Of a stretch of 64,000 nucleotides of DNA, positions 6,401 through 33,400 are shown one piece after another. The notes under the pieces were generated by a model. That model had not been told where the DNA came from, searched no databases, and saw only the letters and a program-made list of their open reading frames with translations. Made by a program: the position numbers and the translations under genes. This DNA comes from Haliotis rubra (lineage: Eukaryota): assembly GCF_003918875.1 (NCBI RefSeq), contig NW_025766092.1, positions 1,054,001 through 1,118,000 of the forward strand. Reading direction: 5' to 3'. Each line of letters opens with the position of its first letter. The stretch's first letter is position 1.

Positions 6401-9400
6401 ATATTTCCCGTGTAACATGTGTCACAGCCTCGAGGTCTTCATTACTGTCATTCAGATGTGGGATTTTACTCACAATGCATCCATGGAGCAATGTTTATTA
6501 GATTTCCATCAGTTATACACGGTCTCGCTACTCGCTAGTTACCACAACACCATGCATCGGTCGTAGGTATTCAGCGTTCATGAAGCAATGTGGTATTTCC
6601 AAACCCGTAAAATAGTGACGATACTTACAAGTGTCATCATACATATGCGTTTGTACGATTTTGAAATGCTAATTATTTCAAGAGATGTAGGTAACGACAG
6701 ATACTGAGAACATATGCCTTCTTTGTCACAGCTCCTCAACCATCACTGAAGCTCGTCGCATCACTGCGCTTTCCAAATCTTCAGTATTCACCCCTATATG
6801 CCAACAAGTCATCAGATGCATTCAAGAACCTGAAGGGGCTATTGGAAAGAGAGGTAATGAAAATCAAATTAATTCTACCCTGTTATATAAAAACATTGCT
6901 CCTTTTAAACTAAAATTTACTTATGGTCATAAGGCAATATTGAAGCTCATAAAGTGTTAATAGAATTTGAACGCCCCACAAACTCTTTTTCAAAATTCAA
7001 GAGTCCATGTTCTGTGTACACGGTCTCAGACACAGAGAGCATGTGTGGATAAATTTGATCAAGTTAGCAAAATACAATCCATATGTCAGCAGAGAATTGC
7101 AATTAATGTTCACATCACACACAATTTTATGACAGTATAAATTACATCCCATAAACTTCTTCATATCTGCAGTAACAAAATTAACTACAATGATAATAGA
7201 AAGTAAATGTCTGACCATATGGAATTCTACTGACGCTGAGATCTACATCATTTTCAGATGAGCAAGCTGTCCAAACCTGGAACAATTGTAACTATTGAAG
7301 TTGTCAGTATAAGGTGTGTATAGCAAGTCAGCATAATACTCCATACTTGTCAACAAATGATGAGTACAATACAATGATATGAAATCTATGAAGTTTGTTT
7401 GGTACTTAAAAATGCATTCAGCAATATTCCAGCTCTAGGACCGCGGCCTTTAAAGAATCTAGTCTGGACCAGACAATCCAATGATTAGCATCATGAGCAT
7501 CGATCTTTGGAATTGGGAAACAATTATCCTGACCCCACGATCCGTTAGTGGCAAGCATGAGTAGTTGAAGATCTACTATAACCAGTATGTTGACTGGTCT
7601 CTTGGCCAAATTATCATTAGGAATTAAGACACCTTTGTTTATTTTCGTAAAGGTGTAATGTTAATATACCGTTTGATGAGCGTACATTAAAAGTAGTATT
7701 CTGTCATCTGTGATTCGAGGCAGATAAAGTTCCGATTGCAAGTGCCCCTTGTTGAAAGACATGGCAACATGTGATTATGTGACAGGGTACCCCGTAGACT
7801 GATGCTCATGCTGTTAACCACCGGTTTGTTCGGCATAAACATGATTATGTACCGGATGCACAATACCGAAGTCAACATTCACTCAATCACATGTAGATTC
7901 ATTGCTGAATCTAAAAAACGGAGAAATATCACGTCTTGACTCTAAATATAGTTTTGAGCTATTTAATATCGAAAAAAAATCATATAAAAGAATATATTAA
8001 ATACTGGAGTCATATGCAGGACGTTTATCATCGATTTCTTCACCAGATCGGGGAGTGTCATTGCTGATTTTGAGGTGACTTCCAACACTACAACCGAAGA
8101 CACCTTAAAACGTGACACAGAAACCCTCTTCAAGTCTATTCAGTCCAATGGCAGAGTGGGCGACTACGCTGTAGACCCTGCCTATCTAACAGTTAACAAT
8201 CCTGATAAAGAAGGTACGTATTATCTGTTTGTAAGCGGTGTACTGATTACATGAAACGGTACATTTGAAAATTTGATCAATCAGTGACAGAAATTATGTC
8301 CGATGCAGTTCCCTATTTTGACTTCTACTATACGTTCCCGAACATGTTTTCAGGTGAGTATAAGGCTTTGCATATGTTTATGCCGAGTGTCACCGGTGGG
8401 CCAGGATATGCTCAGCTTTTTGCGAACACCTGCAGCTGGTACCATTAGGAGATAAACATCATGTGTTGGCCAGTTTCCGGGTGTTATTGAGTATTTGAAG
8501 CACGGGAATTCATTTGGAACCGACGGCGTCAGGCCGGAGGTTTCAAATGGAATATTCCCGTGCTTCAATTACTCAATAACACCCGGAAATTGGCCAACAC
8601 ATGATGTTTATCGACATTGTAAACACAAAAGTAAACCAAAAGGTCCACTTATTGACATCGAGTACGGGTACAGCAGTGAAATGTCATCAGCCGGCCGTTT
8701 CGGCTGTCTCCCATGGTAGCATCTAGAACTGCTCATTTGTGACGTCATTCGGACTTTACGTCACAATATGATTTGAATGACGTCATCTCAGCTGACGACG
8801 TAACGATACAATGGTGTGAGCGATGTTTGTATGCATTAATACGCAGCGAATTTCCGGGAATCGAATACCATTTGATCACGTTTTTCAACCAGTCAGGTCA
8901 AAGAACACAGTGATTTTGGTTTACAATCACTGTTTGATAGTTTAAATACATGCTCAGTCATCTGAATGTAACTATCACTGGATTGTCTGATCCAGACTTG
9001 ATTGTTTACAGACTACGACGTAACTGTAATAGCTGCAATACTGCTGAATGCGACGTCAAACAAACACTGTCATGATAGTGTCATGAATTGCACAATAGAT
9101 TCTGCTTTTAGCATAGATTTCTTACGGATGTGGAAAGGGTATTGTCGTTTCTATTCCATGACTTTGATGATCAGACAGTTTACATGTACACATGTATAGT
9201 TATTCGCAATTGCAGCAGTGTTGAGATTCAGAATTGTCGTATCAACTATCTTCTTTAGAATACGTCCGCTTTGAACAATATTTTACTGCATGTTAGGCTA
9301 GTGTGGAAGAAATCACAAATTCTCACTGTCAGTGATAAATGGTTTGCCACCACCAAAACGTAGATGTTGGTTTTACTTTGTGATTTGCTTCCTCAATGTG

Positions 9401-12400
9401 AAGTTGCTCAGTAAAATATCCCAGACATACCGTTTAAAGTAGCATTAAACCAATTGCCTTTTCAGTTTGGATATAGACTTTACCTGATTTAGATAATGCC
9501 TTTTCTCGAATAACCGGTATTATCACTATTTAAAAGCCTATCATAAACACATGTTCATGATATGTTTTATCTCATACAATAGACTCTACTTTTAGCGAAA
9601 CTTTCTATCGAATATGTAAGGGGTTTCGTCGGTTTGATTTATTTGATTGAAGTTCGATAATGATTGATCAGGATACCTTTCGAATTGGTTGATACATCTT
9701 GGAATAATTTCCCACCGGTTGTAAGTTAGTGTAAGTAGCCCTCGTGTGTGCAATATACATGCAATTAACTTCATACGTTTCTTTTGAAATTATGATGCAT
9801 GATTAATCCGTTTCAATATCTGTTTTCAGAAACAGAGTTTCAGTTCATTGCCTCCCTGCGGTTTCCCAGTCTCACCTACACAGCTGACTATGCCAACAAG
9901 GGGTCGACTGTTTTCATGCTACTGAAGAACCACTTTGATAACGAGGTAAACGGATTTCTTACATATTTGTTATTCTGCACATATGACAGTAGAAGCATAT
10001 ACCTGCCAATCAAAGGTGACAGGTATGAAATGTAATTATTCATTTTCATCTCACCTTTGTTATAATTATAGATTTGCTTATTCAAGGTCAGTAACATACA
10101 TAGTATTCTACTTATATACTCATTTTCATCAAAGATATCGTTGAATAATTGTCATCACAGAGATGTTCGGAATACATTGAACAGATTTTCTAAAGTATTT
10201 TCTTAAAGCATAACACTAATAACACTTGTTCCTGGATTTAGTGAAACTGTTTCCCTTTCAGATGAAGGATCTGCTCAAACCCAATACTATAAAAAGTATT
10301 GAAGTTATCAATATACGGTAAGAGCGAGCATCTTTACACGGTGACACCTTCTGTAAAGTTACTTAAAGTACATAGTTAAACAAATTAATGATGGAGATGT
10401 TTTTGCATAGTGACACTTAAATAGTTACACCCATTTCTTGATTTGCTGAAGATAAATTGCTGTATTTGTCCCATCTTTGCTTCAGGAACGGAAGTGTTAT
10501 TGCTGACTTTGTAGTAAAATCAACATCAAGCGCAACGAACAATGAAACGTTTCAAGATGATGTGATGAACTTCTTCAAGTCTATCCGGACCATCGGCAAT
10601 GTTGCTGGATATGCCGTGGATCCTATCTTCCCCATAGTTGAAACTAGCAGCCAAGGTTTGTTACCGGTGGGGTAGGATGCGCTCACCTTTTTGCGAACAC
10701 CTGGTATCATCACTATTTCATAGTTATTGACAGTATTGGTTTGTTGGGTTGTTAGACGAGACACTCATCTTTTTGATAACACAAGGTATCATCACGATGT
10801 GGCTGTTATTCATAAAGATATATTAATATTATGATGTAGTTAGAATCGCTGAGAGGAATAACGTTTAGTAGCGCTTCCTTGTGATTATGGAAATGTTTAC
10901 TTTACACCATGACATATGCCTCAAATTCCAAAGTTATCTTGTTGCAAATACATACACTGAATTGAATGAAAGAAAATGATGAATGAAATTAGTTCATGTG
11001 TTTCGGACATTTGAACCTCATTTTGTTTCAGTTGTCTATTGTTACCAAAATACTTTGCAAATGTCAATTAATCTGCATTTCATGCAAGGACACAAACCTA
11101 TTCAAAGCCTCATCACATGCTTTTTTCAGAAGAACCTACAGAGATGCCAGAAGGCTGTATGGGTCAGTGGCCAGCCGAGTGTGACGATTGCAGCTACCAA
11201 GTGAAATGGGTCGTTGATGTTGCCAATGACGTAGTAAACTTCACCATTACCGCCAGGTTGGAGGGTCAGAAGAAATGGATTGGACTTGCATTCTCACCAA
11301 CAGGGAGAATGGTATTTAAGTCTTTGCATGTGTTATGATATAGTCCTTAATGTTGAAGGAATGTCATTACATGCCTACAGTTCCTAATTTTATCTAAGCC
11401 AGACGTGACCATACAGACTGATTTTTAAAACTCACATAATCGCGTATTTAAAAATATGTTTTTGTAACTTTTATTACGTAAATTGTTGTGATTGCATGCA
11501 TATATGTTGTATTTGATAACCATGTAACTTTGGTTTCGAAATTTATATCAAATTTCATTGCAAATGTCCAGAGGTAGTGCTACTGGTAGTCTCATTATGC
11601 ATGCCACAAAAGCAGGAAATACCTCAAGGACATGTATCACATAGCAATTATTTTACTGACGCTTCATATTCATTCATCATGCAGAGAAACTCGGATGCAG
11701 TTATCGGATGGGTGGATGGCACCGACTCTTATATCTCAGACAGGTATGAATTACTGCCATGGTAACATATGAAACAAATGGAACTGCAGCTGACATATAT
11801 TTTGCCATCGATGTACTTTGTCATAAATGTGAAATGTACTCCATGTGTTTACCTTCATAGGTTTTATTCTTGTATTGAACGTTGTAGCCTTCATTGTATT
11901 GAAACCCGTAAAGGTCCGGTTTATAATTGGTCTTTGGCAACCCGTGCTTGTCGTAAGTGGCGACTAACGTCATCAGTTGGTTAGGCCCGTTGACGTGGTT
12001 GACACATGTCACCATATCCGAAGTACGTAGATCGATTCTCATTCTGTTGATCACTGGATTGTCAGGTCCAGACTCGATTATTTACAGATCGCCGCCATAT
12101 GGCTGGAATATTGCTGAGTGCTGCCTTACACAACAAACAAACAAAAATGACCGTGAATACTTTCAATTCAGTTATTCATAATGGAAACGTAATTGTTTTC
12201 AGTGATTAATGTCCTTGTTTACATATCTAAACAATTTAGCCGTAACATGTTCATTATCATGACACATTCATTCAGGTAGCTAAACAGTGCAATGTACATC
12301 CAAAGGGGTAATATGATGTTTGATGTTTGATGCACAGATTCATAGTTGGCTACAGCCCACCTGCATTAGATACCGTGGACGACCTGGTTGGTAAAGAAGG

Positions 12401-15400
12401 GACAATGGAAAATGGTGTGACTGTGATAAGGTTCTCCCGCCCAAGAAATACCAGCCAGACTCAAGATTACATCTTCACCGACACTGACTGTCCGTACTTG
12501 CTGTTCCCTGTGGGTGGTGGCAACTATAACGCAGCAGACAGGAGTGTATCCAAACATGACATTACACCATCCGTGTCGGCTCAAAGAATCTGCTTCAGCA
12601 GTGCATGCGCCAGCAAAGGTACTCAGTGATGTTATTATACAGACTTTCTATATGTTACCACTACGAACACGTTTTGTCTCATATTATAAAAACTTCACTG
12701 TTTCGTTTTGTTTGTTTTAATTTCACGTCCGCAAACAATGCAAAGGTTTGTCTTGCTGAATTTAATAATGCTCCTCTTTATAGAACCCAAACCAACATAT
12801 GAGTTCATCGTCTCTTTGCGGTTCCCAAGTCTTCAATACTCACCCGAATACGCTAATAAGATGTCAAATGTTTACTTGCTACTGAAGGATACGTTTGATA
12901 AAGAGGTGAGACGACTGTGGACAGTATATGGGAAGTTGGGAAAATAGGAAGTTGGGAAAATGGGAAGAGAATCAAGTGGGCAGTAAACATTGGTGAACAT
13001 ATTTAAAACAGGAGGAATCGACCTCACCTACCTCAGAACGTGTATTTTATAGATTTGCTATCGTAAGACGCATAACATAGGTGATTGAGTCTTCAGTCCT
13101 TTTGTTACTGAGTATTCTGAGATGTGATTCTAACTATTGAGCTTGATTTAAACGACTACTTGTACATTCGGTATCTTGTTCAGACCTAGTTTTGATGAAG
13201 CATTATTATATGCTATACATCTACACATGAGTGTCCGTAATATTTGCTACTGTAAACGGAAAATAATTATTGAAAATAAATTAACTTCCATAACAGTGTG
13301 TATTTAACAAAATGAAAATGTAATCCTTTTCAGATGAAGGACTTACTGAAACCCAAAAGTATCCAAGGTATTGAAGTAATCAACTTTAGGTAAGGGGCAT
13401 TTCTTGTAATACTTTAAGTGTATTTGTCTGTTTTTCATCACCTTTCTTGTACAATGCATACACAAAGAAATGCACAGTGTACCTTTACAGACAGACAAAC
13501 AATATGTTTTTTGTCAAAATTACTTAGCATTATGCAAAGACACATTTATTATACCATGACATTTATTTTAAATATACATTTTTATGAGAAAAGGAACTAT
13601 GAAATATTACAGCCTTCAAACAGTCAGTTATTTTCTTTGTTTCGAAATTAGGGAAAACTACCAATGTCTAATGTGATCTATTACTACATATGCCTCTATT
13701 TTGTTCAATCTCTCATTTCTCTTCCAGCAATGGAAGTATTATTGCTGACTTTCTGGTAAAATCGTCCCAAAACGCAACGAACAATGAAACCTTTCAAGGC
13801 GATGTAAGGACATTCTTCAAGTCTGTTAAGGTTCTTGGTAATGTTGGCGCTTATCGTGTGGATCCTTCCTATCCCTTAGTCAGGTCGGATGTCCAGCCAG
13901 GTTTGTCATTTTTCTCTGATATATAAAAAATAAAATGTTTAAAATGAATGTTCAAGACTAGATTAAGACCTATATCCTTCTACCATCACTGAATTAGAAA
14001 GAACAGTTTTCATCCAATATGTGCGATGAAGGATTCTGTGTTATTAATAACAAACATTACAATGAAATTAATCCATGAATTTAGTTCGAGGTCAGTCCCA
14101 ATCTGTCCAGTAGTAACAATTGAACCATTCAACTGTACATTTGTTTATGTTCACGATTCCACGAAGAGGTTATTGAAGTCTCTTAAATGTATAGGTCCAG
14201 GCAAGCACATTGAAACATATGTCATTAAAATATGCTTCTATATTGTCTTTTTAGAAGAACCTCCAGAGATGCCAGAAGGCTGTATGGGTCAGTGGCCAGC
14301 CGTCTGTGACGATTGCAGGTACCAAGTGAAATGGGTCGTTGATGTTGCCAATGACGTAGTAAACTTCACCATTACCGCCAGGTTGGAGGGTCAGAAGAAA
14401 TGGATTGGACTTGCATTCTCACCAACAGGGAGAATGGTAGGCCTAAACTATTGATGTCCATGTGTTCAATATAACCTTTGATGGTATAGATATTGATTAC
14501 CTGCATTTACTGATGTTATATTCTATGGGATGAGATATTTAATATCATTGCTACTATTCAGGGATAATTTTGCTACAAACGATGAATATCCTAAACCTAA
14601 ATTCCAATTCTTGTAGCAAAGACCATGTTACACTTGTAATGCTGATTCTTTGCAGAGTAACTCGGATGCAGTTATCGGCTGGGTGGATGGTTCCAACGTT
14701 TACATCTCAGACAGGTAGGAATAGCTGACATGTAAACTTGCCCGACTGTAACAATGTAAGGTTTTGTGTTTTGATCAGGAGAAATGTGGTATTCAAGTAC
14801 TAGACAAAACAAGGAATGGCACCGTATACAATATTTTTCCGTTCAAATGAGAAGAGACTATGGTAATTATATAATTCACGAGAGGAAGTATTCTACATTG
14901 ATACATAAGATTTGATGATACTATTTCAGCCCAATCGGTACAACATTGTCATGGTCATGTTCATATAAATCAATACAATCATGCTCCAACCATTTCAGGT
15001 AACTTAGTTTTCCTAGTAGATTGTAAAGACTAATATGATGTATGTTTTACCTAGATATATAGTTGGCTACAGCCCACCTGCAATAGATACCGAGGACGAC
15101 CTGTTTGGTAAACGAGGGACAACAGAAAATGGTGTCACTGAGATAAAGTTCTCACGTCCAAGAAATACCAGCCAGACTCAAGATTTCACCTTCACCGATA
15201 CTGACTGTCCGTACTTGCTGTTCCCTGTGGGTGGTGGCAACTATAACGCAGCAGACAAGAGTGTATCCAAACATGACATTACACCATCCGTGTCGGCTCA
15301 AAAAAATCTGCTTCAGCAGTGCATGCGCTAGCAAAGGTACTCAAAGATGTTATTCTACAGACTTCCTATATGTTACCACTGTTACGGTTAGAGAATTTCT

Positions 15401-18400
15401 GTCGTAAAAGGTTCCCGAGTCCCCTTTCAAAAGCAAAATACAACAAAGACACGTCTATAATATTCAACTGTATATTAAATAAGCCATGACCAAGGTTACA
15501 ATGAATGACAGTACAGATATCTAGTACAATGCAATTGAGTCACAAATCTAAAATATTGGGTCACAATCTAACCAGAGTCTTGACGTTCACAGTGAGAACA
15601 GATGTACTGATTGAAGGTTGTTGACAGTGACTGCAGTTGAATAGACAAGCACGGGTCGGTCTTGTAACGTTGATAAACTTGATGATGGCAGACAGATTGT
15701 ATAAGTCCGAAGTCCCCGAAACAACTCAACAATCATCCTTTACATAGCTTTTACACTGTTCTCGAACATTCAAGCAAAGCAAGGCTACATCAATATCCTC
15801 TCAGAACGTTATAAAATGCCATCGAAAACACAAGACACCTTGACAACTATTACCAGAAGTCAAAACAAACAAACAAGCCAGCCAATGGCAGATAACTCCA
15901 AAGCGCTATCTCAAAAGGCGTACCGCAAAATCCACACTCAAAACTTTATAACCCATAAGAACTGTCAGTTAATCAATGTGATATTACAATTAAAAAAAAC
16001 ATACTCTCATAACACCACTCTGAAACATTTCATCTTATATTGACAAGAATGTCAATATTTTGTTTTAAGAATTTTCACATCCTCAAAGAGTGCAAAAGTT
16101 TGTGTTGCTGTATTCAAACATGCTCCTCTTTATAGAACCCCAACCGACTTTCGAGTTCATCGTCTCCTTGCGGTTCCCAAGTCTCCAATACTCACCCGAA
16201 TACGCTAATAAGATGTCAAATGTTTACTTGCTTCTGAAGGACTCAATTGAGAAAGAGGTAAGACGACTTTAGAGATTTTTTGGAATTTGATTTCGGTCAA
16301 GTGTATTGTGATGTAGGTGAAACATCTTTGAAACTGGAGGCATTTACATCACCTAACATGGTGCACAATATTGAGTCGATGATAACATAGACATTCAGGG
16401 GGAAATGTATTTTAATCGTGTATATATGGATGACATTGATGATAGTGATCTTAAACCTAAGTTTGTTATTTAAATGCCCTATGATTTAGTTTTATGTAAT
16501 TTGTCCATTCTTTCATAAACATATTAGTTCCATTAGCATACAGGGTTCTAATACCCCGGGCTCTGGAACCGCCTTCCTCGACACATTTAGGACATTGTCA
16601 ATCTCGACCAGTTTCAAACGACAACTGAAAACCCACTTGTTCAACATAGCCTTCGCCTAAACGCCCTTGAGCAATACGTTGGAACAGGCACTATACAAAT
16701 ATTAACTTTATTTATTCATAATTTATTTATTTAATACATGACTCATAACCGAGTAAATGTCATAAGACATTCGTGACTCTTCAGCCTCTGTTCTTACAGG
16801 TCCCGTGTGTTCTAATCATTTTGAGATATTTGTTCACACAAGCTGTTAAATCTGTTAAGTTACTTCTGAATCATAGCATATTTCATCAATTGAAAATGTG
16901 TTCCTTTCAGATGAAGGACTTACTGACACCAAAAAGTATCAAAAGTATTGAAGTAATCAACTTAAGGCAAGGGCATTCTGTACATAGTGTAAATTAGTTC
17001 ATATTCTCTATCATATTCCACTCCTTCTAAACAGCACAAAAATAGAAATGCAATAATGCACCTAAACAGACACTTTACAGTGTATATGTTGCACCTATTA
17101 CTTTCTGAACTATTCCACGTAATGCAATAACACAATAATTGATTTTTTCTCGAGACATACTATAACTGACCTTTTATGATAAAAGGATAGATGGAATATT
17201 ATAGCATTTAAAGACACGTTATGTTTATTGTTTCGAACATAACTAGATATACAACGTGCCCTTTTGACAATTTAAGATAAGTGTCACTCTTTTGTAAAAT
17301 CTGTAATTTCTCTTCCAGGAATGGAAGCATTATTGCTGACTTTGTGGTAAAATCGTCCCAAAATGCAACGAACAATGAAACCTTTCAAGGCGATGTAAGG
17401 ACATTCTTCAAGTCTGTTAAGGTTCTTGGTAATGTTGGCGCTTATCGTGTGGATCCTTCCTATCCCTTAGGTCAAGTCGGATGTCCAGCCAGGTTTGTCA
17501 TTTTTGTGTGATATAATAAAGTGATATGTTTAAATGATTGTTCATGACTTTATTAAGACCTATATCCTAGTACCATCATTAGATAAAAGATTTTTCACTA
17601 ATATGAAGGAATTCTATGTTATGTAATAACAAAATTGCAATGGAAATAAATCCATGAATTCAGTTCGATGGGTCCCTAATCTATCCAGCAGTAACAATTG
17701 AACCATTTAATTGTATATTTGTTTATGTTCACGATTCCAAAGAGGTTATTGCAATCTTTTAAATGTATAGATCCAGGCAAGCACAAATAAAGATATCTCA
17801 AGTTAAACATGCTTCTATATTGTCTTTTTCAGGAGAACCAACAGAGATGCCAGAAGGCTGTATGGGTCAGTGGCCAGCCGTCTGTGACGGTTGCAGGTAT
17901 CAAGTGAAATGGGTCGTTGATGTTGCAATGACGTAGTTAACTTCACCATTACCGCCAGATTAGAGGGTCAGAAGAAATGGATTGGACTTGCATTCTCACC
18001 AACACGGAGAATGGTGAGCCTAAAATATTGATATCCATTTCTTGCAATATAACCTTTGATGGTATATATATTGATTACCTGCATTTACTGATGTTATATT
18101 CTATGGGATGAGATATTTAATATCATTGCTACTATTCAGGGATAATTTTGCTACAAACGATGGATATCCTAAACCTTAATTCCAATTCTTGTAGCAAAGA
18201 CCATGTGACACTTGTAATGCTGATTCTTTGCAGAGTAACTCGGATGCAGTTATCGGCTGGGTGGATGGTTCCAACGTTTACATCTCAGACAGGTAGGAAC
18301 AGCTGACATGTAAACTTGCCCGACTGTAACAATGTAAGGTTTTGTGTTTTGATCAGAGAAATGTGGTATTCAAGTACTAGACAAACAAGGAATGGCACCG

Positions 18401-21400
18401 TATACAATAATTTCCGTTCAAATGAGAAGAGACTATGGTAATTATATAATTCACGAGAGGAAATATTCTACATTGATACATAAGATTTGATGATACTATT
18501 TCAGCCCAATCGGCACAACATTGTCATGGTCATGTTCATATAAATCAATACAATCATGCTCCAACCATTTCAGGTAACTTAGTTTTCCTAGTGGATTGTA
18601 AAGACTAATATGATGTATGTTTTATCCTAGATATATAGTTGGCTACAGCCCACCTGCATTAGATACCGAGGACGACCTGTTTGGTAAACGAGGGACAATT
18701 GAAAATGGTGTGACTGAGATAAAGTTCTCACGTCCAAGAAATACCAGCCAGACTCAAGATTTCACCTTCACCGACACTGACTGTCCGTACTTGCTGTTCC
18801 CTGTGGGTGGTGGCAACTATAACGCAGCAGACAAGAGTGTATCCAAACATGACATTACACCATCCGTGTCGGCTCAAAAAATCTGCTTCAGCAGTGCATG
18901 CGCTAGCAAAGGTACTCAAAGATGTTATTCTACAGACTTCGTATATGTTACCACTGTTACGGTTAGAGAATTTCTGTCGTAAAAGGTTCCCGAGTCCCCT
19001 TTCAAAAAGCAAAATACAACAAAGACACGTCTATAATATTCAACTGTATATTGAATAAGCCATGACCAAGGTTACAATGGATGACAGTACAGATATCTAG
19101 TACAATGCAATTGAGTCACAAATCTAAAATATTGGGTCACAATCTAACCAGAGTCTTGACGTTCACAGTGAGAACAGATGTACTGATTGAAGGTTGTTGA
19201 CAATGACTGCAGTTGAATAGACAAGCACGGTCGGTCTTGTAACGTTGATAAACTTGATGATGGCAGACAGATTGTATAAGTCCGAAGTACCCGAAACAAC
19301 TCAACAATCATCCTTTACATAGCTTTTACACTGTTCTCGAGCATTCAAGCAAAGCAAGGCTACATCAATATCCTCTCAGAACGTTATAAAATGCCATCGA
19401 AAACACAAGACACCTTGACAACTATTACCAGAAGTCAAAACAAACAAACAAGCCAGCCAATGGCAGATAACTCCAAAGCGCTATCTCAAAAGGCGTACCG
19501 CAAAATCCACACTCAAAACTTTATAACCCATAAGAACTGTCAGTTAATCAATGTGATATTACAATTAAAAAAAACATACTCTCATAACACCACTCTGAAA
19601 CATTTCATCTTATATTGACAAGAATGTCAATATTTTGTTTTAAGAATTTTCACATCCTCAAATAGTGCAAAAGTTTGTGTTGCTGTATTCAAACATGCTC
19701 CTCTTTATAGAACCCAAACCGACTTTCGAGTTCATCGTCTCCTTGCGGTTCCCAAGTCTCCAATACTCACCCGAATACGCTAATAAGATGTCAAATGTTT
19801 ACTTGCTTCTGAAGGACTCAATTGAGAAAGAGGTAAGACGACTTTAGAGATTTTTTGGAATTTGATTTCGGTCAAGTGTATTGTGATGTAGGTGAAACAT
19901 CTTTGAAAGTGGAGGCATTTACATCACCTAACATGGTGCACAATATTGAGTCGATGATAACATAGACATTCAGGGGGAAATGTATTTTAATCGTGTATAT
20001 ATGGATGACATTGATGATAGTGATCTTAAACCTAAGTTTGTTATTTAAATGCCCTATGATTTAGTTTTATGTAATTTGTCCATTCTTTCATAAACATATT
20101 AGTTCCATTAGCATGCAGGGTTCTAATACCCCGGGCTCTGGAACCGCCTTCCTCGACACATTTAGGACATTGTCAATCTCGACCAGTTTCAAACGACAAC
20201 TGAAAACCCACTTGTTCAACATAGCCTTCGCCTAAACGCCCTTTGAGCAATACGTTGGAACAGGCACTATACAAATATTAACTTTATTTATTCATAATTT
20301 ATTTATTTAATACATGACTCATAACCGAGTAAATGTCATAAGACATTCGTGACTCTTCAGCCTCTGTTCTTACAGGTCCCGTGTGTTCTAATCATTTTGA
20401 GATATTTGTTCACACAAGCTGTTAAATCTGTTAAGTTACTTCTGAATCATAGCATATTTCATCAATTGAAAATGTGTTCCTTTCAGATGAAGGACTTACT
20501 GACACCAAAAAGTATCAAAAGTATTGAAGTAATCAACTTAAGGCAAGGGCAATCTGTACATTGTGTAAATTAGTTCATATTCTCTATCATATTCCACTTC
20601 TTCTAAACAGCACAAAAATGGAAATGCAATAATGCACCTAAACAGACACTTTACAGTGTATATGTTGCACCTATTACTTTCTGAACTATTCCACGTAATA
20701 CAATAACACAATAATTGATTGTTTTCTCGAGACATATAACTGACCTTTTTATGATAAAAGGATAGATGGAATATTAGCATTTAAAGACACGTTATGTTTA
20801 TTGTTTCGAACATAACTAGATATACAACGTGCCCTTTTGACAATTTAAGATAAGTGTCACTCTTTTGTAAAATCTGTAATTTCTCTTCCAGGAATGGAAG
20901 TATTATTGCTGACTTTGTGGTAAAATCGTCCCAAAATGCAACGAACAATGAAACCTTTCAAGGCGATGTAAGGACATTCTTCAAGTCTGTTAAGGCTCTT
21001 GGTAATGTTGGCGCTTATCGTGTGGATCCTTCCTATCCCTTAGTCAAGTCGGATGTCCAGCCAGGTTTGTCATTTTCTCAGATATATAAGAAAACACAAA
21101 ATGTTTAAATGATTGTTCATGACTTTATTAAGACCTATATCCTACTACCATCAGTGATTTGCAATGAAATGAAGGATTCTGTGTCATTAATAACAAAAAT
21201 TGCAATGGAAATAAATCCATGAATTTAGTTCGAGGTGTCCCAATCTGTCCAGTAGTAACAATTGAACCATTCAACTGTACATTTGTTTATGTTCACGATT
21301 CCACGAAGAGGTTATTGCAGTCTTTGAAATGTATAGGTCTAGGCAAGCACAAAGAAACATATGTCATTAAACATGCTTCTATATTGTCTTTTCAGAAGAA

Positions 21401-24400
21401 CCTACAGAGATGCCAGAAGGCTGTATGGGTCAGTGGCCAGCCGTCTGTGACGATTGCAGGTACCAAGTGAAATGGGTCGTTGATGTTGTCAATGACGTAG
21501 TAAACTTCACCATTACCGCCAGGTTGGAGGGTCAGAAGAAATGGATTGGACTTGCATTCTCACCAACAGGGAGAATGGTAGGCCTAAACTATTGATGTCC
21601 ATGTGTTCAATATAACCTTTGATGGTATAGATATTGATTACCTGCATTTACTGATGTTATATTCTATGGGATGAGATATTTAATATCATTGCTACTATTC
21701 AGGGATAATTTTGCTACAAACGATGAATATCCTAAACCTAAATTCCAATTCTTGTAGCAAAGACCATGTTACACTTGTAATGCTGATTCTTTGCAGAGTA
21801 ACTCGGATGCAGTTATCGGCTGGGTGGATGGTTCCAACGTTTACATCTCAGACAGGTAGGAATAGCTGACATGTAAACTTGCCCGACTGTAACAATGTAA
21901 GGTTTTGTGTTTTGATCAGGAGAAATGTGGTATTCAAGTACTAGACAAACAAGGAATGGCACCGTATACAATATTTTTCGTTCAAATGAGAAGAGACTAT
22001 GGTAATTATATCATTCACGAGAGGAAATATTCTACATTGATACATAAGATTTGATGATACTATTTCAGCCCAATCGGTACAACATTGTCATGGTCATGTT
22101 CATATAAATCAATACGATCATGCTCCAACCATTTCAGGTAACTTAGTTTTCCTAGTAGATTGTAAAGACTAATATGATGTATGTTTTTACCTAGATATAT
22201 AGTTGGCTACAGCCCACCTGCAATAGATACCGAGGACGACCTGTTTGGTAAACGAGGGACAACAGAAAATGGTGTCACTGAGATAAAGTTCTCACGTCCA
22301 AGAAATACCAGCCAGACTCAAGATTTCACCTTCACCGATACTGACTGTCCGTACTTGCTGTTCCCTGTGGGTGGTGGCAACTATAACGCAGCAGACAAGA
22401 GTGTATCCAAACATGACATTACACCATCCGTGTCGGCTCAAAAAATCTGCTTCAGCAGTGCATGCGCTAGCAAAGGTACTCAAAGATGTTATTCTACAGA
22501 CTTCCTATATGTTACCACTGTTACGGTTAGAGAATTTCTGTCGTAAAAGGTTCCCGAGTCCCCTTTCAAAAAGCAAAATACAACAAAGACACGTCTATAA
22601 TATTCAACTGTATATTGAATAAGCCATGACCAAGGTTACAATGAATGACAGTACAGATATCTAGTACAATGCAATTGAGTCACAAATCTAAAATATTGGG
22701 TCACAATCTAACCAGAGTCTTGACGTTCACAGTGAGAACAGATGTACTGATTGAAGGTTGTTGACAGTGACTGCAGTTGAATAGACAAGCACGGTCGGTC
22801 TTGTAACGTTGATAAACTTGATGATGGCAGACAGATTGTATAAGTCCGAAGTCCCCGAAACAACTCAACAATCATCCTTTACATAGCTTTTACACTGTTC
22901 TCGAGCATTCAAGCAAAGCAAGGCTACATCAATATCCTCTCAGAACGTTATAAAATGCCATCGAAAACACAAGACACCTTGACAACTATTACCAGAAGTC
23001 AAAACAAACAAACAAGCCAGCCAATGGCAGATAACTCCAAAGCGCTATCTCAAAAGGCGTACCGCAAAATCCACACTCAAAACTTTATAACCCATAAGAA
23101 CTGTCAGTTAATCAATGTGATATTACAATTAAAAAAACATACTCTCATAACACCACTCTGAAACATTTCATCTTATATTGACAAGAATGTCAATATTTTG
23201 TTTTAAGAATTTTCACATCCTCAAATAGTGCAAAAGTTTGTGTTGCTGTATTCAAACATGCTCCTCTTTATAGAACCCCAAACCGACTTTCGAGTTCATC
23301 GTCTCCTTGCGGTTCCCAAGTCTCCAATACTCACCCGAATACGCTAATAAGATGTCAAATGTTTACTTGCTTCTGAAGGACTCAATTGAAAAAGAGGTAA
23401 GACGACTTTAGAGATTTCTTGGGAATTTGATTTCGGTCAAGTGTATTGTGATGTAGGTGAAACATCTTTGAAACTGGAGGCATTTACATCACCTAACATG
23501 GTGCACAATATTGAGTCGATGATAACATAGACATTCAGGGGGAAATGTATTTTAATCGTGTATATATGGATGACATTGATGATAGTGATCTTAAACCTAA
23601 GTTTGTTATTTAAATGCCCTATGATTTAGTTTTATGTAATTTGTCCATTCTTTCATAAACATATTAGTTCCATTAGCATACAGGGTTCTAATACCCCGGG
23701 CTCTGGAACCGCCTTCCTCGACACATTTAGGACATTGTCAATCTCGACCAGTTTCAAACGACAACTGAAAACCCACTTGTTCAACATAGCCTTCGCCTAA
23801 ACGCCCTTGAGCAATACGTTGGAACAGGCACTATACAAATATTAACTTTATTTATTCATAATTTATTTATTTAATACATGACTCATAACCGAGTAAATGT
23901 CATAAGACATTCGTGACTCTTCAGCCTCTGTTCTTACAGGTCCCGTGTGTTCTAATCATTTTGAGATATTTGTTCACACAAGCTGTTAAATCTGTTAAGT
24001 TACTTCTGAATCATAGCATATTTCATCAATTGAAAATGTGTTCCTTTCAGATGAAGGACTTACTGACACCAAAAAGTATCAAAAGTATTGAAGTAATCAA
24101 CTTAAGGCAAGGGCAATCTGTACATTGTGTAAATTAGTTCATATTCTCTATCATATTCCACTTCTTCTAAACAGCACAAAAATGGAAATGCAATAATGCA
24201 CCTAAACAGACACTTTACAGTGTATATGTTGCACCTATTACTTTCTGAACTATTCCACGTAATACAATAACACAATAATTGATTGTTTTCTCGAGACATA
24301 CCATAACTGACCTTTTTATGATAAAAGGATAGATGAAATATTATAGCATTTAAAGACGCGTGATGTTTATTGTTTCGAACATAACTAGATATACAACGTG

Positions 24401-27400
24401 CACTTTTGACAATTTTAGATAAGTGTCACTCTTTTGTAAAATCTGTAAATTCTCTTCCAGGAATGGAAGCATTATTGCTGACTTTCAGGTAAAATCGTCC
24501 CAAAATGCAACGAACAATGAAACCTTTCAAGGCGATGTAAGGACATTCTTCAAGTCTGTTAAGGTTCTTGGTAATGTTGGCGCTTATCGTGTGGATCCTT
24601 CCTATCCCTTAGTCAAGTCGGATGTCCAGCCAGGTTTGTCATTTTTGTTCAGATATATGAAGAAAACACAATATGTTTAACATGATTGTTCATGACTTTG
24701 ATTTAAATGACCTATATCCTACTACCATCAGTGATGTGCAATGAAATGAAGGATTCTGTGTCATTAATAACAAAAATTGCAATGGAAATAAATCCATGAA
24801 TTTAGTTCGAGGTGTCCCAATCTGTCCAGTAGTAACAATTGAACCATTCAACTGTACATTTGTTTATGTTCAATAGATTCCACTAAAGAAGTTGTTGCAG
24901 TCTTTTTACAATTTATAGGTCTAGATGAGCACAAAAAACATATGTCATTAAACATGCTTCTATATTGTCTTTTCAGAAGAACCTACAGAGATGCCAGAAG
25001 GCTGTATGGGTCAGTGGCCAGCCGTCTGTGACGATTGCAGGTACCAAGTGAAATGGGTCGTTGATGTTGCCAATGACGTAGTAAACTTCACCATTACCGC
25101 CAGGTTGGAGGGTCAGAAGAAATGGATTGGACTTGCATTCTCACCAACAGGGAGAATGGTAGGCCTAAACTATTGATGTTCATGTGTTCAATATAACCTT
25201 TGATGGTATAGATATTGATTACCTGCATTTACTGATGTTATATTCTATGGGATGAGATATTTAATATCATTGCTACTATTCAGGGATAATTTTGCTACAA
25301 ACGATGAATATCCTAAACCTAAATTCCAATTCTTGTAGCAAAGACCATGTTACACTTGTAATGCTGATTCTTTGCAGAGTAACTCGGATGCAGTTATCGG
25401 CTGGGTGGATGGTTCCAACGTTTACATCTCAGACAGGTAGAAATAGCTGACATGTAAACTTGCCCGACTGTAACAATGTAAGGTTTTGTGTTTTGATCAG
25501 GAGAAATGTGGTATTCAAGTACTAGACAAAAAAAGGAATGGCACCGTATACAATATTTTTCGTTCAAATGAGAAGAGACTATGGTAATTATATCATTCAC
25601 GAAAGGAAATATTCTACATTGATACATAAGATTTGATGATACTATTTCAGCCCAATCGGTACAACATTGTCATGGTCATGTTCATATAAATCAATACGAT
25701 CATGCTCCAACCATTTCAGGTAACTTAGTTTTCCTAGTAGATTGTAAAGACTAATATGATGTATGTTTTTTACCTAGATACATAGTTGGCTACAGCCCAC
25801 CTGCAATAGATACCGAGGACGACCTGTTTGGTAAACGAGGGACAACAGAAAATGGTGTCACTGAGATAAAGTTCTCACGTCCAAGAAATACCAGCCAGAC
25901 TCAAGATTTCACCTTCACCGATACTGACTGTCCGTACTTGCTGTTCCCTGTGGGTGGTGGCAACTACAACGCAGCAGACAGGAGTGTATCCAGACATGAC
26001 ATTACACCATCCGTGTCGGCTCAAAGAATCTGCTTCAGCAGTGCATGCGCTAGCAAAGGTACTCAAAGATGCTATTATACAGACTTCCTTTACATTACCA
26101 CTGGGAACACGGTTTATCTTACATATTAAACGTGTCAATGCTTTGTTTCAAGAATGGCAAATCTACAAACAGCACAAAATGTGGTGAACCTGAATTCAAA
26201 CATGTTCCTCTTTATAGAACCCAAACCGACATATGAGTTCATCGTCGCCTTGAGGTTCCCAAGTCTTCAATACACGACCGAATACGCTAACAAGATGTCA
26301 AATGTTTACTTGCTACTGAAGGATACGTTAGACAAAGAGGTAAGAGGACTGTAGAGACTTCTTGGGAAGTTGGGAGGGAATCAAGTGTGTCATGGTGAAA
26401 CATATTGAATCCGGAGGCATTTACATGACCTTACATGGAGCACATTATTTACAAGTTAGACATTGTTGGAGAAATGTATTTTTAATCGTGTGTATATGGA
26501 TGACATTGATGACAGAGAGCCTAAATATGAATTTGTTAACTAAACTGCCTCATGATTGAGTATTATAATATATGTTCGGGTTTTTTTTATAACCACGTTA
26601 GGTCCATTAGCATATAAGTTTACTAATACGGGACTCATGACCGAGTGAACATCATAAGAGATTCGTAACTTCAGTCTCTGTTCGTAAAGGTCCTGTGGCT
26701 ACTAATCATTCTGAGATATTTGTTCACACAAACTGTTAAACCTGCTTTGAACGATGATCGGTACATATTCAGTCTCCTGTTCATTGAAGCGTTATCGCAT
26801 TCTTCGTGTTTATAAACGAAAGTTCGTAACATTAGCAATTGCCAAAAATACACCTAAAATGATTCTTTGAAATTTTGACTTCAGAAACATGGCATATTCA
26901 ATGAAATGACAACGTGTTTCCTTTCAGATGAAGGATTTACTGACACCAATAAGTATCAAAAGTATTGAAGTAATCAACTTAAGGTAAGGACATTGTACAT
27001 ATTGTCTAAAAGGGTTATTACTCAGGGGATAACTGTACTGTGTTTGACGAATTGGGGAGGTGTACCGGTGGCTATACCGCAAATTTAGTTATATCGGCGA
27101 CGCGACCAATCAGAACTCGTGTTACATACTCAGTTGAATTAGAATTTGTTATATATTCCACTACAAGTACAAAACACAAACGAGATTGCAATCATGTGCC
27201 TTAAGAGAAAGTTAACAACAAAACGGTTGTACGTATTATTTTTCCGATTATTCCACATAATCCCAAAGCATAATAATACCTCGATATTAACTTGATGTCT
27301 TATTTTTTTCATAATGAAAGGAAAGATGAATTTTTATAGCATTGCAGGCCATGTTATGTTTATTGTTTCGAACTTAACTAGAAGAAACCTGTCTGCTTTT

Positions 27401-30400
27401 GACAATTTTGAATAATGTCACTTCTTTGTAAAATCTTCCAGGAATGGAAGTATTATTGCTGACTTTCTGGTAAAATCGTCCCAAAACGCAACGAACAATG
27501 AAACCTTTCAAGGCGATGTAAGGACATTCTTCAAGTCTGTTAAGGCTCTTGGTAATGTTGGTGCTTATCGTGTGGATCCTTCCTATCCCTTAGTCAAGTC
27601 GGATGTCCAGCCAGGTTTGTCACTTTTATTATTTTCCCTCTGATAATCACCTGATTGATATACATAAATGATATGTGGAACGTTAAATAGTTTCAATGAC
27701 CGATGCTGACTATATAATGAGCCTTATCCAACTATTGTGAATATATTAGATATGTTCCTTTCTCCCACAACGTGCATTCGAATTATTAATTGTGCCTTAT
27801 TTGATTAAAGATATCGCAATGAGTGTGTTTCCATTAATTCATGGCGATGAACCCTAATTTGTCCAGTGGTAACATTAGAACCATTTAGCTGTATACGTCT
27901 TGTCTATGTTCAATAGAATCCCTAAAGAAGCTGTTGCAGGCTTTTGAAGCTATAGGACTAGATAAGCACAAAACATGTCATTAACACGCTCTTCAATTGC
28001 TTTTCAGAAGAACCTATAGATATGCCAGAAGGCTGTATGGGTCAGTGGCCAGCTGTGTGTGAGGGTTGCAAATATCAAGTGAAATGGGTCGTTGATGTTG
28101 CCAATGATGTAGTCAACTTCACCGTTACCGCCAGGTTGGAGGGTCAGAAGAAATGGATTGGACTTGCATTCTCACCAACAGGAAGAATGGTAGGTCTTAA
28201 ATAAAAATGTGCAGTTTTAACATTGTAACCATTATTTACTGTTCTTCGTTGGATCTGATTGATTTCCTCAACATAAAATCTTAATATTTAAGGTCACACT
28301 TTCATTGTTTTAATGATGAGGATATTTGTTTACAGTATGTTACTTAGGAGATAAACATCATGTGTTGGCCAATTTCCGGGTGTTATTGAGTATTTGAAGC
28401 ACGGGAATATTCCATTTGAAACCTCCGGCTGACGCCATCGGTTCCAAATGAATTCCCGTGCTTCAAATACTCAATAACACCCGGAAATTGGCCAACACAT
28501 AATGTTTATCGACATTGTAAACACAAAAGTAAACCAAAAGGTCCACACACGTTTTTGTGTCTGCACTCATTGACATCGAGTACGGGTACAGCAGTGCAAT
28601 ATCATCAGCCGGCCGCTTCGGCTGTCTCCCATGGTAGCATCTGGAACTGCTCATTTGTGACGTCATTCGGACTTTACGTCACAATATTATTTGAATGACG
28701 TCATCTCAGCTGACGACGTAACAATACAATGGTGTGAGCGATGTTTGAATGTATTAATACGCAGAGAATTTCCGGGAATCAAATACCATTTGATCACGTT
28801 TTTCAACCAATCAGATTAAAGAACACAATGACTTTTGGTTTACAATGTGTTATAAATACACTAATAGTAAGTTTGTCTGATATGTATTTATGTCTGATAA
28901 ATATGTCTCTTATTTTTGTGGTTTACGTGACTAAACATGCTTGTATGCATCATATTAACCTAGAAATATAAATTTTATTGACGACTATAAGATTCTAACG
29001 TTGCATTATGCCATACCGTTGACATTACCGGCGTTCTGACGACATCGCTCGCTGTCCGGTAATTCTGCGCAGCAACTGATGCGCATAACATCCAGCTGGA
29101 GATCCGAAGTATGGAAGCGTATTAGGGCCAGATTCTTTTCAAAAATCACTTCATCAATGTAAGGAAGAGTGTTTCATTAAGGAAAAGGTTTAAAAGTCTG
29201 AAGAAAACGAATTTTCATGAAACTGTCAATTTATCTGTCACTTACTTACTGTTATTTACTTACCTTTAGTGATTAAAAGCTAGAAATGTCTTGATTTCAA
29301 TCGTTAATGTGGTAGCAGACGATGTCAACCATCGATACGGAAGTACGCTATTGCAGCGCAGAATTACCGGACGCGTTGAATTACCGGACTGGATTGTGTA
29401 TGATGGTGAAGCGAAATCAGTTTGGCCGAATAATAATGAATATAACTTGCAGTCATTGTCATCAAAGCAGCTATGAATTTGATACTGAACTGCTGGTTCT
29501 GCGTTTCATGTCACAATATTCGATGTCAAGGCGTTCATTATATCGTAATATAACCGTTTACACCGATATTGACAGGTTTAATTGTGAATACACATACGTG
29601 TTTATTGATTTAGATTATGAAATGCCCAAGGAAGAAGGTGTGCAAAACTATTGTTAAAAAAGAAAACGTTAAATGTAACGCCTAAGTTCACTGCAATATA
29701 TTTCCCCTTTCAGAGTAACTCGGATGCTGTCATCGGTTGGGTTGATGGTTCCAACGTTTACGTGTCAGACAGGTATGGTTCACTCAGACAGGTATGGTTC
29801 ATTCAGATAGGTATCGTTCACTCAGATAGGTATGGTTCACTCAAACAGGTATGGTACACTCAGATAGGTATGGTTTACTCAGATAGGAATGGTTCACTCA
29901 AACAGGCATGGTTCACTCAGATAGGTATGGTTCACTCAGACAGGTATGGTTCACTCAGACAGGTATGGTTCACTGAGATAGGTATGGTTCACTCAGATAG
30001 GTATTGTTCACTCAGATAGATATGGCTCACTCAGACAGGTATGGCTCACTCAGATAGGTATGGTTTACTCAGACCGATATGGTTCACTCAAACAGGTATG
30101 GTTCACTCTGATAGGTATGGTTCACTCAGACATGTATGGTTCACTTAGACAGGTATGGTTCACTTAGACAGGTATGGTTCACTCAGACAGGTATGGTTAA
30201 CTCAGACAGGTATGGTTCACTCAGACATGTATGGTTCACTCAGATAGGAATGGTTCACTCAGACAGGTATGGTTCACTCAGATAGGTATGGTTCACTCAG
30301 ACAGGTATGCTTCGCTCAGACAGGTATGGTTCATTCAGATAGGTATGGTTCACTTAGATAGGTATGGTTCACTCAGACATGTATGGTTCACTCAGATAGG

Positions 30401-33400
30401 TATGGTTCACTTAGACAGGTATGGCTCACTCAGATAGGTATGGCTCACTCAGATAGGCATGGTTCAATCAAACAGGTATGGTTCACTCAGACAGGTATGG
30501 TTCACTCAGACAGGTATGGTTCACTCAGACATGTATGGTTCACTCAGACAGGTATGGCTCACTCAGATAGGCATGGTTCACTCAGATAGGTATGGTTCAA
30601 TCAAACAGGTATGCTTCACTCAGACAGGTATGGTTCACTCACACATGTATGGTTCACTTAGACAGGTATGGTTCACTAAGACAGGTATGGTTCACGCATT
30701 GAGGTATGGTTCACTCGGACAGCCATGGTTCACTCAGACAGGTATGGTTCACTCAAACAGGTATGGTTCACTCTGATAGGTATGGTTCACTCAGATAGGT
30801 ATTGTTCACTCAGATAGATATGGCTCACTCAGACAGGTATGGCTCACTCAGATAGGTATGGTTTACTCAGACCGGTATGGTTCACTCAAACAGGTATGGT
30901 TCACTCTGATAGGTATGGTTCACTCAGACAGCTATGGTTCACTCAGACAGGTATGGTTCACTTAGACAGGTATTGTTCACTCAGACAGGTATGGTTCACT
31001 CAGACAGGTATGGTTCACTCAGACATGTATGGTTCACTCAGATAGGAATGGTTCACTCAGACAGGTATGGTTCACTCAGATAGGTATGGTTCACTCAGAC
31101 AGGTATGGTTCACTCAGATTGGTATGGTTCACTCAGACAGGTATTGTTCACTCAGACAGGTATGGTTCACACATTGAGGTATGCTTCGCTCAGACAGGTA
31201 TGGTTCATTCAGATAGGTATGGTTCACTTAGATAGGTATGGTTCACTCAGACATGTATGGTTCACTCAGACAGGTATGGTTCACTTGGACAGGTATGGTT
31301 CACTCAGACAGGTATGGCTCACTCAGATAGGCATGGTTCACTCAGATAGGTATGGTTCACTCAAACAGGTATGGTTCACTCAGACAGGTATGGTTCACTC
31401 ACACATGTATGGTTCACTCAGACAGGTATGGTTCACTAAGACAGGTATGGTTCACACATTGAGGTATGGTTCACTCGGACAGCTATGGTTCACTCAGACA
31501 GGTATGGTTCACACATTTAGGTATGGTTCACTCGGACAGGTATGGCTCACTCAGACAGGTCTTGTTCACTCAGACAGGTATGGTTCACTCAGTCAGGTAT
31601 GGCTCACTCAGATAAGTATGGTCCACAATTGAGGTACGGTTCACTCAGATAGGTATGGTTCACTCAAAGTGTTTCACTCGAAGATATAGTTGTTGTCATT
31701 CTGGCATTGCTATGTTAAATCCATTTACTTCAATCAAGGAAAGTTCCAGCAGCTAATGTAATGATAAGAGACAACAATGAGGATTGGTTGTTTGTGAAAT
31801 GTCGCCGCGCTGTTTATGTGGCACCATACTGGGCGTCAGGGGTTGTTCCTCTGCCTGCTATACAGGTCTTCTCAGTGATATATCAGCCCAAAGTAAAGGT
31901 GATACAGGGGAACCCGTTTGGACCAAATCTGATGTTAGGGCTATTCTGTTGAATATCTCAGAATACAAGGAATATTACTTCAGTAATCTATAAAGATTAT
32001 GTAAAACATAAAACACTAAATTCAAACGACGGTTCAACGTAACATTCCCTTTGCCGATCCAAGAATTTCTTCACAATTTCAAATAATTCTTTGCCATTTG
32101 ATTGCCTAAATATGATTTGTTCATATATCGTAAAATGGCAAATATTACTCTTTTCTTAAGATAGAATGGGTTGATGATTGAATGTGAGAGATGGTGTTGC
32201 ACGCTGTGACGAAGGCTGTCACATATACCTTCCTGTGTCTTCAGGTTTTGTGTGGATGGTGCGATTAATGGTCTTTGAATTAATCATATATATTTATAAG
32301 AACTGACTTCATCCTGTGTCGATGGAGACACAAATCGGTGTGCACACAAATATCTTGATGTTCTTTATCCCTTTTTTTTCAATGTTCTAATCGTGTGATA
32401 TCGATATTGTTTGCTCAGGCACATCACCGGGTATAACCCACCTGTAATTGACGCACAGCAGGACCTGCTGGATGCTCGGGGAACGCTAGTCGACGGTGTC
32501 ACTGAGATTACCTTCTCTCGTAAAAGAAATACTGGTGGACTTCAAGATTTTACCTTCACCGACACCGACTGTCCATTCTTGATCTTCCCCGTTGGCGGCG
32601 GCGGCTACAACGCAGCTGACAAGAGTATCTCCAAGCATGACACAACGCCCGAGGTGTCAGCTCAAAGAATCTGTTTCAGCAGTACATGTGCTAATAATGG
32701 TACGTTTATTGTTTCCAGACCCGTGCAGATCTGGGTTAGAAATGGTCTTAAGCAACCCATGCTTGTCGTAAGAGGCGACTAACGGGATCGGATGGTCGGG
32801 GTCGGTGACTTGGTTGATACAGTTGCGTAGATCGATGCTAATGATGTTGATCACTGGATTGTCTGGTCCAGACCTGTCAGTCGAAGAAGCTACTAACAGG
32901 ATCCGGCGCTCAGGCTCCGTGACTTAGTAATTCATCCATATTGACCTCACCATACTGATGTTGTTCAGGCAAAACGTCCATCCCGTCCTTTCTGGATATA
33001 TGCTGATTTTCCAGTTGCCATTGATTCAGTAACCATAATAATCACAACCTACTGGACCTCATCAAATAAAGGGAATCACTCTGTTTATTTGCAGCAACAA
33101 AACCAACGTTTCAGTTCACAGCTTCCCTGCGGTTTCCAAACCTGCAGTACACAACCGACTTCGCCAACAAGATGTCCAATGTCTTCATCCTACTGAAAAG
33201 CCAATTAGATAAAGAGGTATTAAGGAATATATATTAAAATATATATAAAACTCAAAACAAGTTTAGAACACGAATATTTGTAAGGCTGGGCGCCAAGCCA
33301 GGAGCCGGTTTACTACAGTCTTCTTGGAAAAATCGGGATTCCTGTATTTCTTTTGAGTAGTATAGTGTATAACTGTATTGGAAATTGGATCCTCTACTAT

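Follow-up and report, generated by a model that had tools for sequence, protein, structure and literature searches.

A hairpin-ended repeat family in Haliotis rubra, its recombinase-coding CryptonA partners and a possible single-stranded route of transposition

Introduction

Animal Cryptons have been described without terminal repeats, and the cited portion of Kojima and Jurka 2011 (PMC3212892; papers given by PMC identifier are cited here and below for parts of their text) enters the termini of CryptonA as 'n.d.' and reports no 4–6-bp terminal repeat for animal CryptonA. Fungal DUF3504 elements carry variable, poorly conserved repeats, with neither 'hairpin' nor 'palindrom' mentioned in the part of the text cited (Krysinska 2026, PMC13465315), and Eulor5/6 are considered Crypton relics (PMC5753468). 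An active CryptonF excises cleanly and also gains copies (PMC9977147), and animal CryptonA ends are undescribed. Here we analyze a 64,000-nt stretch of Haliotis rubra DNA (contig NW_025766092.1, positions 1,054,001 to 1,118,000; hereafter the window), part of a 1.38-Gb eukaryotic assembly, which contains two copies of a short hairpin-ended element whose loops lie in opposite orientations (flip and flop). A sequence-only reading of the window had taken this arrangement as a signature of rolling-hairpin replication; our analysis instead connects the element to CryptonA.

DIRS elements encode a tyrosine recombinase, lack target site duplications (TSDs) and contain an internal region complementary to both of their ends. 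This internal complementary region (ICR) is also described in PMC13465315. Tyrosine-recombinase sites consist of inverted arms around a 6–8-bp spacer (PMC3212892). In attP(+) of CTXphi, a folded strand is exchanged once, at the edge of its 6-bp center, and replication resolves the product (Das 2014, PMC4246890), and in attC, unpaired features and skew select one strand (Nivina 2016, PMC5027507).

Results

Two copies in the window belong to a large family

The two copies are 88.8% identical over 507 alignment columns (Table 1). Each starts with TTAGGA, followed by a 161–162-nt palindrome whose outer arms, A and A', are 59 bp long (2 and 1 mismatches, respectively). The inner 43–44 nt of copy 2 are the reverse complement of those of copy 1, bar one extra G and single substitutions, and this 'loop' is an imperfect stem in its own right, capped by a 4-nt tip. 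ATTGTAAAC...CAAAA and TTTTGGTTTACAAT delimit the body, and only one end of the element bears a hairpin. The sequence-only reading had described two copies at these positions in the same orientation, with the 59-bp-arm palindrome, the reverse-complemented loop and these body boundaries, all of which hold. Both junctions of copy 1 are spanned by short-read contigs from a public run (X1).

The family comprises several hundred short elements, at least 570 copies: the 19-nt junction between hairpin and body has 570 exact matches in the genome, compared with 0 for a reversed control. A subterminal CCAAT-type box lies 40 nt from the element end in 120 copies.

The family ends surround a DUF3504 tyrosine recombinase

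Both family ends also occur around recombinase genes. The direct partner (L428, on contig C398) is 2,180 nt long and carries the two ends on either side of a frameshifted DUF3504-like gene. In a second partner copy, on C1099, the left 312 nt are 93.6% and the last 80 nt 93.8% identical to copy 2, and two frames match DUF3504 and Phage_integrase, with R, K, HxxR, H and Y motifs. The stop-free frame of L390 and the two L426 frames show the catalytic residues R-K-H-R-H-Y, with PF00589 above cut-off. The coding elements L428, L390, L157 and L169 have a recombinase frame only, with no reverse transcriptase or DDE transposase. Because its ends are shared with recombinase-coding copies, the family is, with near certainty, an internal-deletion, non-autonomous derivative of a 2.2-kb CryptonA element with a DUF3504 tyrosine recombinase; about 110 nt in the middle of the non-autonomous element have no match in the partner. 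The CryptonA label rests on Pfam DUF3504/QRICH1 matches and on a QRICH1 match for L157, and a PDB sequence search returned QRICH1 as its only match.

Like CryptonA, the partner encodes only a DUF3504 tyrosine recombinase within 2.2–2.9 kb and has no TSD, and non-autonomous copies far outnumber coding ones. It departs from CryptonA as described in its single long terminal hairpin, in an internal sequence complementary to the joined ends, in sharing one base rather than a 4–6-bp repeat, and in its symmetric target. The sequence-only reading had proposed a non-autonomous element not moved by cut-and-paste, which agrees with ends common to tyrosine-recombinase elements and with the missing TSD; longer copies with the same ends, for which it had named a HUH/Rep-helicase or a tyrosine recombinase, encode the latter, and the family ends were not found near 7 RepHel and 8 NS1-like loci.

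A 2.65-kb sister element (L390:1611–4260, on C2074) has the start typical of its clan and a stop-free 425-aa frame above the DUF3504 and Phage_integrase cut-offs, which makes this frame a candidate for biochemistry. Among its 30 closest relatives, the tail motif occurs within 1.5 kb in 18, on the same side in 15. L390 and L398–L427 form a recombinase-coding CryptonA clan with a common TTAGGA start and compensated arm changes. More broadly, DUF3504 loci share one plan: the tail, a long hairpin, a 3–4-nt linker and the reverse complement of the far end. With wide flanks, a hairpin lies at most 1.2 kb away at 44/79 DUF3504 loci compared with 3/39 control stretches, and a 10-mer or longer beside the inner arm has its complement on the gene's far side at 23/79 loci, compared with 1 for the outer-side control.

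At least four further non-autonomous families (L191–L260, 1.4–1.9 kb) have the start and tip in common and diverged arms; one of their patterns has 423 matches. No recombinase frame was found inside sister families B–E (1.4–1.9 kb). Two other loci were rejected as partners: L180 is a sister non-autonomous element inserted into a DUF3504 gene, and at L258 the element does not include the neighboring recombinase gene.

It is very improbable that the family is a Helentron-dependent HINE (HLE2) whose terminal stem-loop happens to be exceptionally long. A subterminal inverted repeat, a terminal stem-loop and the lack of a TSD do recall HINEs (PMC4067079, PMC11417382; Helentron features also from PMC5148889), with about 14 bp for the far end B and its internal complement B' next to 12–15 bp in HINEs, and the genome has a 2,350-aa RepHel-endonuclease frame. 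The palindrome, however, measures 161 nt against 5–10 bp, and T at –1 in only 29/78 copies means that there is no TT target. The family ends were not found in 7 RepHel regions (of 29 Helitron_like_N loci, wide flanks; best E 0.28), nor was RepHel similarity found in 121 family loci or the window, and the ends match tyrosine-recombinase elements. As far as those 7 regions go, it is the recombinase-coding partner with family ends that rules out this candidate. The Rep-helicase-endonuclease (Helentron) frame itself is stop-free and lies inside tandem arrays (L132–L133, C2101:2302741–2309790), with a second copy on C2412.

Insertion junctions fit a single strand exchange at one edge of a 6-nt spacer

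No TSD was found, in line with the sequence-only reading: matches of 2–9 nt remain at shuffle level in 60 flank pairs, across five possible registers. The left end shows TT in 77/78 cases, and the target is symmetric about six bases, with A(–2) in 63/78, W(+6) in 79/87 and T(+7) in 68/87; the spacer consists of a shared T and then five free bases. In sister families the same positions score 41/46, 37/45 and 33/45. The empty allele of copy 2 in run X1 retains a single T, and, judged by eye, an empty/filled pair of paralogous loci (L036, L030) agrees with this one-T junction, as do copies nested in their own kind (L022, L042). Joining takes place at the spacer's left edge, and the TTAGGA is invariably supplied by the element. 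The 4–6-bp terminal direct repeat of the fungal/oomycete Crypton F and S pattern is absent, only one T being shared. The symmetric target, the left-edge join and the element's own TTAGGA suggest the footprint of strand exchange at one spacer edge, and the junctions fit one such exchange with minimal homology.

The joined-end motif has 10 matches, all of them head-to-tail neighbors or truncated copies, with no spacer-swapped products; they cannot prove circles. Head-to-tail stacks occur at L182, L184, L185, L186, L190 and L257, where newcomers, sister families included, are inserted precisely at an earlier copy's right end. At L022, L032 and L042, one shared position in arm A of a resident copy has received a further copy.

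These junctions also bear on an alternative, the Goodwin model, in which the CryptonA derivative would move as a double-stranded circle; the hairpin and its complement would be accessory sites or a cruciform, and flops would come from the 59-bp arms crossing over, an event that the recombinase might start. The partner evidence is identical for this model, active CryptonF excises cleanly (PMC9977147), insertions do occur at the right end of earlier copies, and the 15 clean flops described below are compatible with crossover. Yet the invariant tail and single shared T leave neither a 4–6-bp repeat nor a carried-over coupling sequence. The body between B' and B is never found inverted (0 matches in the genome for that state) despite the much shorter inverted repeats that flank it, and the one-strand GA mismatches described next are not predicted by a duplex model. 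We consider a double-stranded circle unlikely, although it deserves serious attention.

One strand is predicted to fold into two binding arms

Within one strand, arm A', the linker and B' are the reverse complement of the joined ends, bar a 5x3 bubble. In a predicted circular fold of copy L108, arm A pairs with A' and the last 14 nt with B'. Exactly two bases of the joint are missing from the internal strand in the sister clan. B/B' and the arms covary across families, and in four families the arms are 57–75% alike between families, yet 95–98% self-complementary. Tandem G·A pairs and GNA-type loops stabilize DNA hairpins. On the hairpin-first strand, tandem GA exceeds tandem TC in 28/33 hairpins from 19 families (1 reverse, 4 ties), the hairpins and the first member per family having been hand-picked, with L156, L169, L313, L342 and L350 left out. 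As modeled, a mismatched center in one folded strand can be flanked by two binding arms. By analogy, a single-stranded DNA intermediate of transposition is likely.

Flop copies are a scattered minority

From the first 100 matches we fetched 90 copies, of which 62 are flip, 10 flop and 18 unclear; patterns matched genome-wide give 299 flip and 42 flop (12% flop, n = 341 scored). Both isomers are common. Flops are present in young and old subfamilies and with both arm variants, in 3/14 copies of sister family B (scored by eye) and in the recombinase-coding copies L271 and L400, and flop and flip copies are equally diverged (age test, p = 0.78). On a tree of 148 bodies, 33 flops require 30 changes, compared with a shuffled mean of 29.6, indicating no flop clustering. 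At L293 (C2526:458049–458983), three flop-type units lie in tandem with a spacing of about 425 nt, and L301 (C857:560528–560803) is a head-to-head pair with one copy inserted close to the hairpin tip of the other.

Hairpins are frequently damaged, with breakpoints at the tip

The hairpin is intact in only 30/83 copies of an unbiased set. Of 53 hairpin deletions, 40 were parsed, and 3 of these are symmetric. In the unbiased set, with one duplicate dropped, 14/27 deletions break at the hairpin tip, compared with 5.2 expected (p = 0.0002); with a wider window, the comparison is 14 with 8.0 expected (p = 0.009). Consistent breakpoints appear in short-read contigs, where 9/12 hairpin-starting joints among the matches listed begin at 8523–8532. 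Fifteen flops are clean at all five markers, and 11 flops are exact 161-nt inversions, while in 9 mixed copies one arm has been copied from the other. In many copies a shortened left arm meets, at the tip, a right half of the flop type.

Damage affects 6/10 copies in the youngest age bin and 21/36, 7/12 and 12/14 in older ones; its presence in the youngest copies points to events at or soon after insertion. In the age test, damaged against intact copies gave p = 0.15. The intact share is lower among flop-right copies (11/45 compared with 28/52, p = 0.004), a weak comparison in which two ascertainments are mixed.

Long palindromes are difficult to sequence, and the flop of copy 2 is not seen in reads, where contigs collapse repeats. 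Even so, flops and hairpin deletions are hardly credible as assembly or library artefacts: tip-anchored deletions are present in short-read contigs, some in 2–3 runs, and duplicated loci (L285/L286) carry the identical flop and deletion.

A further alternative makes hairpin transfer an integral step: nicking and copying of a hairpin-capped intermediate, a parvovirus-like resolution by Rep, or by host enzymes after the recombinase, would produce flip and flop. In its favor, both isomers are real, exact 161-nt inversions occur, coding copies have flops too, NS1-like sequences are present in the genome, and tip-anchored breaks could reflect hairpin opening. Parvoviral inverted terminal repeats are likewise imperfect terminal palindromes in two orientations (PMC5948225). 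However, the minor isomer amounts to 12% here, compared with the near-equal ratios modeled for adeno-associated virus (PMC5948225); there is a single hairpin; the partner encodes a tyrosine recombinase and no Rep; family ends are absent near 8/8 NS1-like loci (1.5-kb flanks); and the many mixed and deleted arms include mixed ones that clean transfer does not produce. Hairpin transfer as an integral step is thus improbable. The sequence-only reading had allowed a hairpin or single-stranded intermediate or a tyrosine recombinase: the recombinase partner was found and a single-stranded intermediate is likely, but rolling-hairpin replication fares poorly, since flop frequency, the single hairpin, mixed arms, tip deletions and the lack of family ends near the 7 RepHel and 8 NS1-like loci all argue against reading flip and flop as its signature. 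The eight Parvo_NS1-like matches (L351–L358), some within long open frames, are unrelated to the hairpin element.

Table 1. Positions of the two copies and their parts in the window
Feature	Position	Strand	Remark
Copy 1, non-autonomous CryptonA derivative (near certain), flip isomer	8445..8927	+	final T common to target
Copy 1 invariant 6-nt tail TTAGGA	8445..8450	+	putative element-side spacer of attachment (att) site
Copy 1 terminal hairpin	8451..8612	+	
Copy 1 arm A	8451-8509	+	
Copy 1 imperfect inner stem	8510-8553	+	tandem GA/GA mismatch; GTCA tip 8528-8531
Copy 1 arm A'	8554-8612	+	
Copy 1 linker and B'	8613..8641	+	linker GAC (3 nt); B' is reverse complement of far end
Copy 1 subterminal CCAAT-type box	8888..8896	+	here CCAGT
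Copy 1 far end B	8914..8927	+	TTTTGGTTTACAA + shared T
Host target left half at copy 2	28339..28343	+	A at -2
Copy 2, flop isomer	28344..28846	+	polymorphic insertion; empty allele in run X1
Copy 2 terminal hairpin	28350..28510	+	
Copy 2 arm A	28350-28408	+	
Copy 2 inner part	28409-28451	+	inverted
Copy 2 arm A'	28452-28510	+	
Copy 2 linker and B'	28511..28539	+	linker GAC
Copy 2 subterminal CCAAT box	28806..28814	+	
Copy 2 far end B	28833..28846	+	
Copy 2 host 6-nt spacer and target right half	28846..28856	+	spacer T + 5 free bases; W +6, T +7, AAA

Other features of the window

Exon-like pieces of a DOMON-domain host gene lie at 8150–8353 and 27962–28189, and both copies are downstream of GT donors. 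Copy 2 sits about 155 nt into the intron downstream of the DOMON-like exon, whose match (E 1.9e-6) is under the curated cut-off. Another high-copy repeat with sharp ends (28913–29177) begins 66 nt past copy 2. The window further contains a tandem satellite with a 19-nt unit repeated about 95 times or more (29638–31700), a broken-up Pao/BEL-type retrotransposon with a Peptidase_A17 match (45420–51059, minus strand) and an element with 277-nt inverted arms of 99% complementarity (1497–2958).

Discussion

We favor, at somewhat better than even probability, a reading in which this gene-less CryptonA derivative moves as a folded single-stranded circle, flop being a by-product of template switching at the hairpin. 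In this model, a one-strand exchange between the element's ends, carried out by the recombinase, would set the hairpin-first strand free in circular form. Pairing of arm A with A' and of end B with B' would rebuild a duplex att site with a mismatched center. At the host 6-nt spacer, a single exchange of one strand at the left edge, for which the shared T suffices, would then give a product that replication resolves. When the 60-bp hairpin is copied, whether during insertion or afterwards at the locus, the polymerase may now and then change templates or jump to the unpaired tip, yielding clean flops, mixed arms and one-sided deletions. Inter-strand template switching turns a loop around where it stands and overwrites one arm with the other (PMC8794818), and as it gives flops, mixed arms and tip-anchored deletions alike, flop is likely a by-product; clean hairpin transfer would account for the clean flops only. 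As reported for template switching, such inversions are rare, 4–8 nt long and in RNA genes, whereas here 43 nt are inverted in 12% of copies.

Several observations weigh against this folded-strand reading. Both direct partner copies are frameshifted, about 6 kb of sequence with an RNase H-like frame splits one of them, and 35/79 DUF3504 loci have no nearby hairpin. The support for a single-stranded or circular intermediate is drawn from assembled sequence and predicted folding; the 19 families in the GA/TC count are related, and their hairpins and first members were chosen by us. The predicted folding energy gap between flip and flop is small (2.6 kcal/mol), and the 15 clean flops are equally well explained by crossover or hairpin transfer. 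Because the body tree is star-like, with 3/145 branches starred and those forcing only 2 changes, an independent origin of each flop is unproven. Finally, L428, L445 and L447 have a common left flank and only L428 has the hairpin deletion, so hairpin damage also arises after insertion.

Among known systems, CTXphi attP(+) is similar in that a strand carrying two inverted half-sites folds up into a duplex site, with no homology on the other side, and the geometry of the element fits, by inference, the single exchange of CTXphi. Unlike CTXphi, which depends on host XerCD at dif and cannot excise, the element would use its own recombinase, a loose target and a site across the joined ends. With integron attC it has in common a folded single-strand site, extra-helical bases, an unpaired center and strand nucleotide skew; it differs in lacking a cassette array or attI, in its terminal stem of 60–85 bp, and in that any strand selectivity is here predicted from sequence. 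DIRS elements match in the internal complement of both ends, the tyrosine recombinase and the absence of a TSD, whereas the coding elements here are 2.2–2.9 kb and have no reverse transcriptase, RNase H or inverted terminal repeat pair. Copy gain by CryptonF alongside clean excisions is compatible with the folded-strand model.

Added here are the direct partner, the flip/flop counts and the tip breakpoints. A search of literature listings found no paper describing the Crypton hairpin plan, with Repbase, Dfam and subscription journals outside that search, and curators may have noted it.

Flip/flop hairpins need not imply rolling-hairpin replication, and the end plan described here classifies many orphan hairpin repeats. 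With an att geometry, a target consensus and a recombinase frame free of stops in hand, oligonucleotides can be used to test the mechanism. More tentatively, at slightly below even probability, animal CryptonA elements as a whole may be eukaryotic fold-and-paste transposons, with flops, mixed arms and tip deletions, which mark more than half of the copies, as the integration footprint of a pre-formed 60-bp hairpin that is copied or opened. If true, bacterial-type single-stranded site-specific recombination would operate in animals, in a family ancestral to ZMYM/QRICH1.

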